A DNA stretch of 64,000 bases, from contig CAVHOL010000004.1 of NCBI GenBank assembly GCA_963637655.1, positions 2,586 to 66,585 of the forward strand, read 5' to 3'. Positions 25,568 through 29,430 of the stretch are shown here, in pieces. The notes beneath the pieces were generated by a model that worked only from the letters and a program-made list of their open reading frames with translations, was not told the DNA's origin and did not search any database. This DNA is from a bacterium (GTDB lineage Bacteria > Bacteroidota > Bacteroidia > Bacteroidales > Bacteroidaceae). The position numbers and the translations under genes are program-made. Positions within the stretch are counted from its first letter, which is position 1; each line of letters opens with the position of its first letter.

Positions 25568-25666
25568 TTGGTCTTTCTGATGTATTATTACATATGTGTA
25601 TATATGTGGCGCACTGCTGCATCCGCTATACGCCGGAGTCATGTTGGAGAAGGTTTTTGCTATCCG

Positions 25667-25674
25667 CAAAAGTA
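25667..25674 (-). promoter_or_regulatory. candidate -7 box TACTTTTG for hflX
   Basis: The minus-strand sequence matches TAnnTTTG, about 95 nt upstream of the ATG at 25565-25567. Confidence 0.4.
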
Positions 25675-25790
25675 CGAATAAAAAACTGGAATCCGCCTAA
25701 AGCACGGCCTAAATCCAAAGCCGGAAAAAGAAAATGCAAGTTTTTTTGAAAAAAGTTTGCCGAAAATTTGGAGGCTACAAAAAAAGTGCT

Positions 25791-25798
25791 TACCTTTG
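25791..25798 (+). promoter_or_regulatory. candidate -7 box TACCTTTG (with TTTG at 25767-25770 as a -33 element) for tRNA-Lys
   Basis: The spacing of about 20 nt between TTTG and TAnnTTTG fits the Bacteroides promoter consensus, about 35 nt upstream of the tRNA. Confidence 0.5.
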
Positions 25799-25833
25799 CA
25801 CTCGCAATTGAGAAACAAGCTTCTCACAAGCAA

Positions 25834-25906
25834 GCGTCCTTAGCTCAGTTGGTAGAGCAACTGACTCTTAATCAGTGGGTCTAGGGTTCGAGCCCCTAAG
25901 GACGCA
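25834..25906 (+). tRNA. tRNA-Lys (anticodon CTT)
   Basis: Manual cloverleaf: acceptor GCGTCCT/AGGACGC, D arm GCTC-AGTTGGTA-GAGC, anticodon arm ACTGA-CTCTTAA-TCAGT, T arm TAGGG-TTCGAGC-CCCTA, discriminator A; 73 nt in total. Confidence 0.95.
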
Positions 25907-25911
25907 CGAAA

Positions 25912-25942
25912 GACATCGACAATTTAGTCGGTGTCTTTTTTT
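25912..25942 (+). terminator. rho-independent terminator after tRNA-Lys
   Basis: Stem gacatcgac / gtcggtgtc (one G-U pair) with loop aattta, followed by T7. Confidence 0.7.
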
Positions 25943-26002
25943 GTTGTATATTATCGTATTCCGCCGCAAAAACGGGACAACAATACAGCAAAGCAAGAAT
26001 CA

Positions 26003-26615
26003 TGTTTTGCACACCCAGCCCCGTAGGGTAGGGTGTTCAAAATAAACATTTTTTACGAAATCTTTTTTTGTCTACCTTAAATATTCTAGTTCGTTGATAT
26101 ATAAGGCTTTTCATTAGACTTCTACAGTCATTCCATGTCGCATTTTTGTCTTGGCCTAAATTGTGTTTTGCACACCCAGCCCCGTAGGGGCGACATAGTA
26201 TAGCGTAGGGTTTCTTGCTGACGCAAGCGACAAAGTCGAGCGGCCCCTACGTTTTAGGGTTGTGTTTTGACCGTTGCCCCTGTAGGGGGCGCATAATTAA
26301 ATTGAATATGGATGAATTATACGCCCCCTACAGGGGCAACGTTTGAGAAACCCGTTTGAGATAGGGCCCGCTCGACTTTGTCGCTTGCCTTGGCAAGAAG
26401 GCCCTATCCTATATTATGTCGCCCCTACAGGGCTGGGAGTACTATAATCCCCAAACAGAGCATTTAGGATAAGACAATTTATGAACCGTCCTGGGATGTT
26501 CCAACTCGTTTACTACGAGACTCTTCAAAGGATTCTTATGGGCATTTAATACTGCATTTTCTGTCTCGTAAAAAATGTTCATTTTGAACACCCTACGGGG
26601 CTGGGATATGCAACA
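26003..26615. repeat. roughly 0.6-kb nested imperfect palindrome built from CCCC..GGGG hairpin modules
   Basis: The symmetry centre is near 26306. Inner arms 26175-26298 and 26315-26437 are largely complementary. Outer motif gttttgcacaCCCAGCCCCGTAGGG occurs at 26004 and 26165, with inverted copies at about 26420-26437 and 26591-26605. No convincing CDS is present. Confidence 0.75.
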
Positions 26616-26828
26616 CCTCTCTGTGTAGTTCTTGTAGGGCTGTAAATACAACGTCCCCTTGTGTGGTTTTTATCAATCTGACCATGACGCAAAGGAACAC
26701 AGAACACAAATGGAGCTTCTTCGGTTTACCGTACACCAATAACTACAAAAACAGTCCAAAACGCCCTGTGCATTTCTGCCCGCGACGTTTTGGGCTGCTT
26801 CTATATTGCAGTCAGCAAACCGGGAGGA

Positions 26829-27227
26829 CTACCCTACCCCGAGCAGCTCCACTTCGAAGATGAGGGTAGAGCCGCCGGGGATGCCCGGCTGCGAAAATTT
26901 GCCGTAGCCCATCTCCGAGGGAATGTACAGTTCCCATTGGTCGCCGACATGCATCTGCTGCATGGCGACAATCCAACCGTCTATCAGATCGGAGAGCCGC
27001 ATGGCAAAGGGCGTTCCGCCACGACTGGAGTCAAACTTCTTGCCGTTGATGGTCCAGCCGGTATAATGGGCGGTGACGATACTGCGCCGGGTAGGTGATG
27101 GCCCGGTGGGGTCGCCGGACTTCAAGACCTTATAGTAGATACCCTGCGGAAGGGACAGTACACCCTCCTCCTTTGCCTTTTCCGCCAGCCAGCGGCGGTT
27201 GGCTTCTATATATTCTTTCTTTGCCAT
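26829..27227 (-). CDS. FKBP-type peptidyl-prolyl cis-trans isomerase
   Basis: 132 aa with VTAHYTGWTINGKKFDSS ... LIDGW ... MHVGDQWELYIPSEMGYG ... IPGGSTLIFEVELL. Confidence 0.9.
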   Translation of the reverse strand: MAKKEYIEANRRWLAEKAKEEGVLSLPQGIYYKVLKSGDPTGPSPTRRSIVTAHYTGWTINGKKFDSSRGGTPFAMRLSDLIDGWIVAMQQMHVGDQWELYIPSEMGYGKFSQPGIPGGSTLIFEVELLGVG

Positions 27228-27243
27228 GATGATAATATACCAA

Positions 27244-29430
27244 TTACTTCACGACGATTTTCTTCGCCGTTCCGTTGTCGTAGCGTATGATATTGATACC
27301 GCGGGTGCAGGCCGTACGCGTCTTTCCGTCGACACCGTAGATGCCCACCACCTTGCAGGTACTCTCATCCGTTACACCCTTTATGGCCGTCGGCTTCTCC
27401 ACCTGTGCAGTCATGGCGAATATGGTAGGACGTCCGCCCGTCTTGGAGAAGGTCACGCTGCTGAGCGTCTTTTCCTTGTCCAGCGGTACGGCAATCTCAT
27501 AGAGGCAGCACACTTCTTTGGAATCGATCTCGTCGGCCCGGCCATAATAAGAGCTTGCGGTAAGGATACGTCCCAGACTGTTGACCGCATCGTCTGCATC
27601 TTCAGTCTGTCCGTACCAGTCGGCCACGGTTGCCGAGGTGGAAGTACCGGATGTACCGTCGGTGTACTTTGGCGTGACGGTCAGCACCGACTTGCCGTCG
27701 GCACTGATAGCCAGACAATAGAGCGTCTTTCCCTGTATGCGGTCGCTGACTTTAAGTTCATAGTCAGAGGTTGAAGTCATGGTCAGCGCATTGTCGGCGG
27801 TATAGTCGGCAAGCACATAGGTCACGCCCTCAGCGGAGGTCACGGTATGGTCATCGCCGGCGAGCGCACCGCTCTCCTGCACAGCTGTAGTATAGAGGGT
27901 ATAACCGGCCGCGTCGACAGTACCTGTGACATGAGAGGCAGACGGCGTAGCCTCGGCGATAACGTCGGCATTAAAACCATTCGACACGGTGAGCGCCGTG
28001 AAATCGCCCGAAAGCGGAGTCTTGATCTTCCAGGCCTTGTCCATGAAGGCAAGACGGCTGGTGACAAACGACTTCAGCGCACTGACCTTGCTGCTGAACG
28101 AACCGAAATGGCTGTTCCAGGCCTCATTGTCGCGGTCGAGCGCACCGCTCTCCTGGAGCACGGTGGCCATAGAGTCTATTTTCGCCGTAATGAACGCCTC
28201 GGAATAGTTGCCCTCGCGACGCTCGGTCCACCGCTGGCGCAACTCCTGCACATAGGCGGGGTCGTTCATCAGTTTATACCAGAAGAAGGGCACAAGCTGC
28301 TGGTCGGCCGAAGCCATAAGGTCATTGCTCTTGTAGCGCCATGTCGAGGAGTTGTTGGCATCATAGTAGTTGGCTATGCCGTAGGCGATATTGAAATCCC
28401 AAAGGGCCGTTTTCCATTTGGCGTCAGTACCGAGCTTGGCAGCGTGCGTCTCACTGTACTTGTAGAGCGGCGTGCTCAGACGGTAGGCATCGACATTGTT
28501 GGAGAATTCCTGGGCAATCTGATAATCGATGAACGACTGCACGTCGATATACTTCCGGTAGCCGTTCTCGCCGGTATAGTCGGAAGTGGTGAACGAGCTT
28601 TCCATATCTTCGATGGCATTGCCGATGGCTTCCTCCACACCCGAAGGCAGGTCGGCAAAGTCATCATACTCCGGCTCCTTGTACTGGTAGGCCACCGTGC
28701 GGTCGGTGTACTCCACACCCGTGCTGCTCACCGGATGGTGCTTGGAGACATAGTAATGGTCCTCGTCCTTGCGGTCGATCTCTACATGGAAGTCACCCGT
28801 AAGGTCATCTGCGGTAGGATCGTCGAGATTGAGACGGTTTTTGCCTTTCGTGGCACGTTCAGACATGATATAGATGCCGTAGTAATAGCCGTCGAGCACC
28901 ACTTCACAGAATTTCATGTGGGGCGCAAACGAGCTGCCGCCGCGTGCCAGTTCCATGGTCAGCACGTCGCGCATGTAGCTCATATCCTCCCACGGAGCGA
29001 GCATGGCCCAGTCATTGTCCTTGCCCATTCCCATGATCGACACCTTGGCCTTCTTGGCCGTAAGGTCGGCGGCAGACAGCGGACGGATAGAGAGCGGCTT
29101 CTTGTCTGATCCGGTAAACGAGGTGTTGCCGCGGTACTTGATGGCCACCGGACCTTCCCAGTCTACCGTCTGGCCGGCATGGGCGACAGTGTCGAGATAG
29201 TTGTGCCCGTCCTTGTTGTCAATGATTTTCACCGTTGCGAGCACACGGTTTTCACGCTCGATGGTCTGGCCGTTCACGTTGATGAAGACCAGCGGAAGCG
29301 TCGTTTCCGTGAAAGTGACATTGCGCGACGGTCTGAAATTGTTGGGGTCGGTGTCTTTTCCGGAGGCCGGCAACACGGCGGATGCCATCAATGTCCCCAG
29401 GAAGAAGGAAGAAAGTATACTTTTTTTCAT
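27244..29430 (-). CDS. CotH kinase-like family protein with probable T9SS C-terminal sorting domain
   Basis: 728 aa with a signal peptide and a CotH-like core (LPLVFINVNG..., KKPLSIR, DMSYMRDVLTMELAR, YYGIYIMSE). The C-terminus ...VVGIYGVDGKTRTACTRGINIIRYDNGTAKKIVVK resembles T9SS CTD motifs. Confidence 0.8.
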   Translation of the reverse strand: MKKSILSSFFLGTLMASAVLPASGKDTDPNNFRPSRNVTFTETTLPLVFINVNGQTIERENRVLATVKIIDNKDGHNYLDTVAHAGQTVDWEGPVAIKYRGNTSFTGSDKKPLSIRPLSAADLTAKKAKVSIMGMGKDNDWAMLAPWEDMSYMRDVLTMELARGGSSFAPHMKFCEVVLDGYYYGIYIMSERATKGKNRLNLDDPTADDLTGDFHVEIDRKDEDHYYVSKHHPVSSTGVEYTDRTVAYQYKEPEYDDFADLPSGVEEAIGNAIEDMESSFTTSDYTGENGYRKYIDVQSFIDYQIAQEFSNNVDAYRLSTPLYKYSETHAAKLGTDAKWKTALWDFNIAYGIANYYDANNSSTWRYKSNDLMASADQQLVPFFWYKLMNDPAYVQELRQRWTERREGNYSEAFITAKIDSMATVLQESGALDRDNEAWNSHFGSFSSKVSALKSFVTSRLAFMDKAWKIKTPLSGDFTALTVSNGFNADVIAEATPSASHVTGTVDAAGYTLYTTAVQESGALAGDDHTVTSAEGVTYVLADYTADNALTMTSTSDYELKVSDRIQGKTLYCLAISADGKSVLTVTPKYTDGTSGTSTSATVADWYGQTEDADDAVNSLGRILTASSYYGRADEIDSKEVCCLYEIAVPLDKEKTLSSVTFSKTGGRPTIFAMTAQVEKPTAIKGVTDESTCKVVGIYGVDGKTRTACTRGINIIRYDNGTAKKIVVK

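Follow-up and report, generated by a model that had tools for sequence, protein, structure and literature searches.

A palindrome downstream of tRNA-Lys in a Prevotella-like genome as a composite copy of a REP-like repeat family probably spread by an IS200-like Y1 transposase

A nested palindrome of about 0.6 kb lies downstream of a tRNA-Lys gene in the window, the 64,000-nt stretch of contig CAVHOL010000004.1 that was analysed here. What kind of element is it, and does its place beside a tRNA matter? The original prediction offered four readings: a REP/BIME-like cluster, a structured RNA locus, a recombinase or replication-related site, and the scar of an element integrated next to the tRNA. 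The host genome is a 2.85-Mb draft in 149 contigs with 55% GC, and the best relatives of its HflX, about 90% identical, bear the names Prevotella or Prevotellaceae. The gene order at the locus is hflX (-), tRNA-Lys (+), the repeat, FKBP (-), and a CotH gene (-). The tRNA-Lys (CTT) gene (25834–25907, +) was detected by ARAGORN and by the Rfam tRNA model (71.5 bits). It is followed at 25908–25945 (+) by a terminator-like hairpin and T-run (in the terminator scan, a 13-pair stem and then TTTGTTGTAT), situated about 60 nt upstream of the repeat start. On the far side of the element, a gene for an FKBP-type prolyl isomerase (26829–27227, -; Pfam FKBP_C, E 4.5e-25) converges on the tRNA; it is adjoined by a gene for a 728-aa protein with a CotH kinase domain (27244–29430, -). 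The region was described as the largest non-coding stretch of the window and indeed is so when gaps are ranked with a crude ORF call (100-aa minimum): 25643–26828 is the biggest gap (1186 nt vs 533 nt for the next). Short ORFs within the region were rejected as coding, and a 69-aa ORF found there starts outside the element.

Repeat finding bore out the proposed symmetry about position 26306. The inner arms around the 16-nt centre were resolved into three tiers of complementary segments: 26172–26210/26402–26440 (39 nt, 87%), 26212–26249/26362–26399 (38 nt, 89%), and 26272–26298/26315–26341 (27 nt, 96%). Motif A was recovered as a direct repeat (25998–26028 and 26159–26189, 94%) with inverted copies ending at 26437 and 26605. 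The hairpins local to each arm were likewise present as claimed: the left arm has CGTAGGG/CCCTACG and the right arm GATAGGGCC/GGCCCTATC. The outer modules X and X' had been taken for diverged inverted copies of each other; this holds for their outer 31 nt (26028–26058/26566–26596, 97%; inverted repeat I3) and about 16 inner nt, which are complementary, but not for the middle 80–100 nt, which are unrelated. As single-stranded DNA, the inner 276 nt were predicted to fold at -101.9 kcal/mol, compared with -37.2 ± 3.7 kcal/mol for shuffles (z -17.5), and folding of the whole 616 nt gave a z of -20.6 vs shuffles.

BLAST of the 613 nt of the palindrome against its own genome yielded about 150 merged loci that span 29 kb. 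A module census done by blastn-short counted about 447 REP units in 140 clusters, or about 1% of the 2.85-Mb genome. The reading as a REP/BIME-like cluster is the one that stood: the family is genome-wide, and a Y1 transposase gene sits within one of its elements. The family is built from a GC-rich hairpin, about 25 nt long and with a tail that is AT-rich and conserved (GCCCC[T]GTAGGGG[G]CG.CATAAT), and four REP units together with two H2 hairpins form one stereotyped palindrome. Each half of this element consists, in order, of REP-a (AGCCCCGTAGGGGCG.CATA.TATAG), the 8-bp hairpin H2, a spacer of 21–23 nt, and REP-b (TGCCCCTGTAGGGGGCGCATAATT); a loop of 12–16 nt and the mirror image follow. The standard element measures about 205 bp (about 193–212 bp), and the length rises to about 223–233 bp with one long H2 and to about 247–261 bp when both are long. 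The exact order H1> H3> H3< H1<, with REP-a as H1 and REP-b as H3, was found in 64 of the 140 clusters, alongside 21 halves and 16 three-quarter elements.

Conservation across the family was concentrated in the REP modules. Within the window, the best-conserved segments are 26178–26210, 26272–26341, and 26399–26437. Most positions of REP-a are identical in 108–111 of 111 element ends, and four positions are two-state. Mean pairwise identity was 0.96 for REP-a, 0.98 for REP-b, and 0.60 for the spacers (0.52 for shuffled spacers). As 37 of 109 spacers have a twin at ≥95% identity, the spacers form classes, as they do in BIMEs. Larger arrays include a tandem triplication of a whole tetrad with its flanks (G000:C3:1438-2373, 3 x 324 bp, 100% identity) and a three-unit array of a four-unit module with a 246-bp period (G000:C136:2826-3518). 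Repeats of this kind break assembly (26 of the 140 clusters touch contig ends), and they may be misannotated as RNA genes, CRISPR-like arrays, or att sites. A third short hairpin motif, similar to GGTGCGGTGTCCCACCGCAC, is found repeatedly next to REP tetrads, in the flanks of G000:C2:66978-67187 and on G000:C80 near 8100.

The copy in the window adds the AT-rich arms X and X' and terminal half-REPs to a tetrad. The tetrad itself (26165–26440, 276 nt) is a member of the genome-wide family in the rare long/long form, carrying a 34-nt H2 insert on both arms, as do 3 of the 55 tetrads typed. Its left half comprises REP-a (H1; 26178–26203, +; AGCCCCGTAGGGGCGACATAGTATAG), whose 16-mers occur 74–104 times in the genome; the long form of H2 (26204–26251, +), with the stem CGTAGGG/CCCTACG around an insert holding two mini-hairpins; and REP-b (H3L; 26275–26298, +), which includes the 16-mer that tops the genome-wide count (197 occurrences). 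The central 16-nt loop (26299–26314) corresponds to the site of the Y1 transposase gene in the copy on contig C107. Beyond it lie the inverted REP-b (H3R; 26315–26338, -; inverted repeat I4, 96%), the long-form mirror of H2 (H4; 26360–26408, -), whose stem GATAGGG/CCCTATC is unlike that of the left arm, and the inverted REP-a (H5; 26409–26437, -), with one G>A change in the hairpin (CCCCTACAGGGCT). The tetrad is flanked by arm X (26033–26160) and arm X' (26442–26593). At the outer left, the terminal module A (26004–26029; direct repeat D2) is the leader GTTTTGCACACCCAG plus a truncated REP-a (CCCCGTAGGG), and 16 nt of this module are 100% complementary to 26590–26605 (inverted repeat I6); at the outer right, module A' (26590–26615; inverted repeats I6 and I7) consists of ACCCTACGGGGCTGGG and the leader. 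The complete X-tetrad-X' form was seen elsewhere on contig C100 only, and single-armed forms were seen on contigs C24, C80, C88, C13, C89, and C149. Further copies of X were located on C100, C24, C89, and C149 (partial), and of X' on C80, C100, C88, and C13. X joined to X' without an intervening tetrad was never found in the genome.

The original prediction held that the local hairpins of the arms are what is preserved. This was supported across the whole family: 185 of 189 H2 hairpins keep their basal pairs through three base-pair variants, compared with about 68 expected from marginal frequencies. The basal two pairs are GA/TC in 86 cases, CG/CG in 59, and GG/CC in 35; the long form with the 34-nt insert accounts for 36 of the 189. 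Left and right variants were alike in 21 of 55 tetrads vs 20.4 expected by chance. The variants thus combine at random, and long-range pairing at those positions is not maintained. The covariation likely stems from descent from a few internally compensated subfamilies, and stem subfamilies with compensatory changes have already been described for REPs (PMC3733652).

The distribution of the family bears on the question about the tRNA. Coding sequence makes up about 86% of the genome, yet nearly all clusters (138 of 140) fall outside ORFs, and 43 of 112 (38%) lie between convergent genes, compared with 17% of all intergenic regions. A cluster occurs within 500 nt of 3 of the 34 tRNAs, about the rate of any intergenic region. 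A duplicate of the tRNA-Lys 3' end was not found elsewhere in the window, which speaks against the scar of an element integrated at the tRNA. In a related metagenomic organism, the tRNA end is identical up to 25942 and the FKBP gene is about 84% identical, with tRNA-Lys joined to FKBP via 120–131 nt vs 877–886 nt here. A polymorphism within the same strain was not seen in the metagenome contigs. In 40 related genomes the hflX match stops before the tRNA, and the hflX–tRNA-Lys adjacency is therefore not conserved in those species representatives. Taken together, the position beside tRNA-Lys looks incidental. The supposed positional tie of the motif to this gene was absent and the repeat is a generic genome-wide one, an outcome that the original prediction itself had listed as counting against it. 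Nothing pointed to a recombinase or replication site, and a stereotyped element at about 140 loci speaks against a single-locus site.

The age and spread of the family were assessed from its copies and its relatives. No comparable family was detected in the 40 related genomes, 24 of them from the same genus; two congeners yielded a few partial matches of 31–34 nt. The closest full-length element pairs are only 92% identical, and hence there is no sign of a very recent burst. No target-site duplication was found in 49 elements at 15 offsets (0–14) and six lengths (k = 3–9).

Pfam Y1_Tnp matches occur at two places in the genome. The possibility that a RAYT-type gene resides elsewhere in the genome had been raised beforehand, and a Y1 HUH gene was found on contig C107 within an element of the family. 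This gene (G000:C107:1180-1635, -; 151 aa; PF01797, E 3e-23) occupies exactly the space that separates H3L from H3R, its stop codon overlapping the H3L tail and the H3R unit beginning 52 nt upstream of the ATG. Including the complete outer arms, the gene-bearing element measures about 737 bp. The commonest 16-mer of the genome, GCCCCTGTAGGGGGCG, is present in both flanks of the gene. The protein passes the NCBIfam IS200 model NF033573 (58.2 bits vs a cut-off of 55) and fails the curated RAYT model NF047646 (22.7 bits vs a cut-off of 80). Its sequence matches in the PDB are weak and solely to IS200/IS605 TnpAs. Foldseek searches with its AlphaFold model (pLDDT 83) matched the ISDra2 and IS608 TnpAs with E 1e-8 and the E. 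coli RAYT (4er8) with 2.4e-5. It carries the motifs NHIH, WQ, and YIKNQEEHH, and H55, H57, W96, Q97, Y116, Q120, H123, and H124 are invariant in 23 homologues. Subclass 1.2 of TnpA-Y1 is defined by HuH, WQ, Y---Q--HH, a length of about 148 aa, and a specific C-terminal tail, and was described as low-copy, present in Bacteroidetes and Cyanobacteria, and "REP: no" (Quentin et al. 2018, PMC6006769). Judged by its motifs and approximate length, the predicted C107 enzyme falls in this subclass.

One full copy of the C107-type gene was assembled in this draft genome. The end of a second copy, comprising the last 95 nt at 98% identity, is located at a contig end (G000:C149:2366-2460) with a degenerate H3L at the same junction, and the gene copy number is therefore not clearly one. 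Synteny of the C107 gene with its orthologues in congeners was not found within 1.5-kb flanks in this draft assembly. Given this and the possible second copy, the gene could belong to an ordinary insertion sequence with deletion derivatives and not be a domesticated RAYT. The within-genome paralogues in this genus are 28–46% identical to the C107 protein and are not recent duplicates.

Related enzymes were found with repeat families of their own. The second Y1 gene of the genome (G000:C119:3122-3574; L012:1483-1941) encodes a protein with the motif YINNQPEHH, 36% identical to the C107 protein. The palindromes flanking this gene belong to a distinct family, measure about 280 nt, and share the layout of the first family but not its stems (CCAGCCCTGCAGGGGCG...); an exact 16-mer of this second family occurs 42 times in 31 clusters (e.g., G000:C2:22646-22966 and C9:19356-19680). 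In the congener G045, the orthologue of the C107 protein is 69% identical and is accompanied by units of the same layout with other stems (AGCGCCGAAGGTGCGACATAA and GGATAGGGTGCAAACCCTATC); this family is barely dispersed in the G045 genome. When the repeat family of the window was searched for in the genomes with the closest enzyme orthologues, G065 yielded nothing and G045 only three weak matches, because the stems have diverged. Y1 genes of other congeners are bracketed by inverted repeats of 40–120 nt with two GC hairpins. Among 71 homologous loci drawn from Bacteroidota, Acidobacteriota, Planctomycetota, and others, 31 were bracketed by inverted repeats that exceeded in strength those of every one of 71 mismatched controls. 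At least 38 copies of the repeat that flanks the Y1 gene are scattered through the genome of Flavipsychrobacter stenotrophus; in Bacteroides xylanisolvens XB1A, the flanking repeat occurs as a local array with about four dispersed copies. The XB1A array (L056, NC_021017.1, about 3774668-3775065), a 49-nt unit repeated six times with a period of about 64 nt upstream of the homologous Y1 gene, could pass for a CRISPR array. On balance, we lean towards the view that subclass 1.2 Y1 enzymes are a separate RAYT-like lineage in Bacteroidota and other phyla, each enzyme maintaining its own multi-hairpin repeat population, with an unusually large expansion and a co-resident second system in the genome studied here.

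The palindrome is most probably a composite, non-autonomous copy of a REP/REPIN-type mobile repeat family spread by the C107 Y1 enzyme, its spot by tRNA-Lys being incidental. Functionally, the system can be classed as REP/REPtron-like, its enzyme falling outside the RAYT clade. Mobility of the repeats and activity of the enzyme are inferred by analogy, with the solved complexes of IS608, ISDra2, and the E. coli RAYT as models for the mechanism. The hairpins would extrude on single-stranded DNA, for example at replication forks. The cognate HUH/Y1 transposase, encoded in the central loop of the full element on C107, would recognise and cut the REP hairpins. It would then rejoin the cuts, and gene-less elements could be moved or copied in trans into intergenic DNA without target duplication. 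The copy in the window would be present where it is because a spacer between convergent genes tolerates insertions, and not through the tRNA.

The same mechanism would operate, with a different evolutionary status, if the family were an ordinary IS200-like insertion sequence of about 740 bp, made up of a Y1 gene and palindromic ends, together with internally deleted MITE/PATE-like derivatives, and thus selfish and not domesticated. PATEs are gene-less derivatives of IS200/IS605 insertion sequences. We consider this possible though doubtful. It fits the score just over the IS200 cut-off, the closeness of fold and sequence to the IS608 and ISDra2 TnpAs, the near-identical second gene end on C149, the gene without synteny to orthologues in congeners, and the length of about 737 bp for the gene plus arms. 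In IS200/IS605 elements, however, the left end is not symmetric with the right one, the subterminal hairpins lie on one strand, and several near-identical full copies occur. The ends here are inverted repeats, the roughly 140 gene-less clusters are matched by two gene copies at the most, and the same-genus paralogues have diverged too far to be recent duplicates. Moreover, Y---Q--HH is the signature of subclass 1.2, which lacks IS properties according to Quentin et al. (PMC6006769).

Mobility would have ceased altogether if the elements were retained mainly because they serve the host, for instance by terminating transcription or insulating convergent genes from each other, by protecting mRNA 3' ends, or by binding nucleoid or gyrase-type proteins. 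The enrichment between convergent genes, the very stable predicted hairpins, and the far better conservation of modules than of spacers agree with this, and host-level selection for a structural role could also produce REP modules 95–98% identical beside spacers about 60% identical. Such a function is improbable as the explanation, because the lack of a comparable family in the 24 same-genus genomes searched argues against any general need for it, the two genes are joined without the element in a relative, tRNA-Lys has its own terminator upstream of the repeat, and the perfect 324-bp tandem triplication and the many half-elements resemble the dynamics of mobile DNA. A family of structured non-coding RNA genes or cis-regulatory RNAs, the second reading in the original prediction, is very unlikely. 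The compensatory changes in the local hairpins would suit it, as would a sub-threshold Rfam match to Acido-Lenti-1 (28.1 bits vs 37). Yet a strand-symmetric palindrome has no defined sense strand, promoter-like sites were no commoner than in shuffled sequence, the family is tied to the gene of a single-strand DNA transposase, and covarying subfamilies are the REP pattern (PMC3733652). Rfam membership was rejected, as only the tRNA passed its threshold and the best other match fell below it. The REP-a hairpins matched Acido-Lenti-1 (RF01687) at 26178–26223 (-; 28.1 bits) and 26409–26434 (+; 22.2 bits), probably through a resemblance between hairpins. Least likely of all is a classical MITE of a DDE transposase or an attachment scar of an element integrated at tRNA-Lys, in spite of the terminal inverted repeats and the position just downstream of a tRNA gene. 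The DDE-type MITE was rejected for want of a fixed-length target-site duplication at any of the 15 offsets and six lengths in the 49 elements. The tRNA-targeted scar was rejected with repeat clusters near tRNAs at the background rate (3 of 34 tRNAs) and the tRNA 3' end not repeated in the window.

The REP-like system was compared with those already described. REP/BIME and REPIN sequences with RAYT (TnpA_REP) genes make up the "REPtrons" of Proteobacteria (Nunvar 2010, PMC2817692; Bertels & Rainey 2011, PMC3116915; Ton-Hoang 2012; Messing 2012, PMC3479197). Like these, the system studied here consists of short, GC-rich palindromic units present outside genes in hundreds of copies (447 units in 140 clusters) and arranged in inverted doublets and mosaic clusters (here 64 tetrads, halves, and arrays). 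It likewise has a Y1 HUH gene between inverted copies, with a flanking 16-mer more frequent than any other in the genome, a separate cognate repeat family for each paralogue, and stem subfamilies with compensatory changes. Unlike the REPtrons, it has an enzyme outside the RAYT clade (YIKNQEEHH in place of the class 2 Y---NP) and a gene that may have a second copy. Its unit is a four-REP, five-hairpin palindrome of about 205 bp, compared with a doublet of about 70–110 bp, and its GTAG lies inside the hairpin and not in an unpaired 5' tag, and is not kept in the sister systems. With subclass 1.2 it shares a length of about 148–151 aa, the motifs HuH, WQ, and YIKNQ.EHH, low copy number, and occurrence in Bacteroidetes; in contrast to the published "REP: no", clear cognate hairpin repeats (about 447 units) are present here. 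For a RAYT-like "IS200 Group 3", Bertels et al. 2017 (PMC5581495) noted flanking 16-mers in abundance and no gene duplicates. Abundant flanking 16-mers are likewise seen here, and this group may correspond to subclass 1.2.

Di Nocera et al. 2013 (PMC3733652) surveyed the GTAG-tagged REP superfamily and TIRYTs; repeats with GTAG turned up in Proteobacteria, Cyanobacteria, Chloroflexi, and the PVC group, and those of Bacteroidetes were of the CGTC type only. Shared with that superfamily and the TIRYTs are stem subfamilies with complementary changes, clusters and tandem reiteration including flanking DNA, a preference for gene 3' sides, and Y1 genes flanked by long inverted repeats. In contrast to the superfamily, GTAG is paired or in the loop here (CCCC-GTA-GGGG), with no free tag, and the sister systems have GAAG, TGCA, or GAAA. 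IS200/IS605 elements such as IS608 and ISDra2 offer the closest fold and sequence, with the Y1 HUH fold, the catalytic motifs, and the absence of target duplication in common; the gene-bearing element here is about 740 bp long, and a mechanism acting on single-strand DNA through hairpin recognition would be expected. Unlike in IS200/IS605, each end is an inverted copy of the other, the assembly contains a single full gene copy, and the ratio of gene-less to gene-bearing elements is about 70 to 1 or higher.

Among bacterial mobile DNAs that are long-lived and inherited largely vertically, REP sequences and RAYTs are the principal known case. To our knowledge, work on them has dealt almost entirely with Proteobacteria and class 2 enzymes. 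If a large, regularly built population of repeats in a Prevotella-like genome of gut or rumen origin is indeed driven by an IS200-like branch hitherto listed without repeats, the phenomenon would be broader than recorded and that listing would need correction. The two co-resident enzyme-repeat pairs would serve specificity experiments and, if subclass 1.2 enzymes do each maintain their own repeats, this genome would lend itself to tests of how such an enzyme recognises the hairpin that belongs to it.
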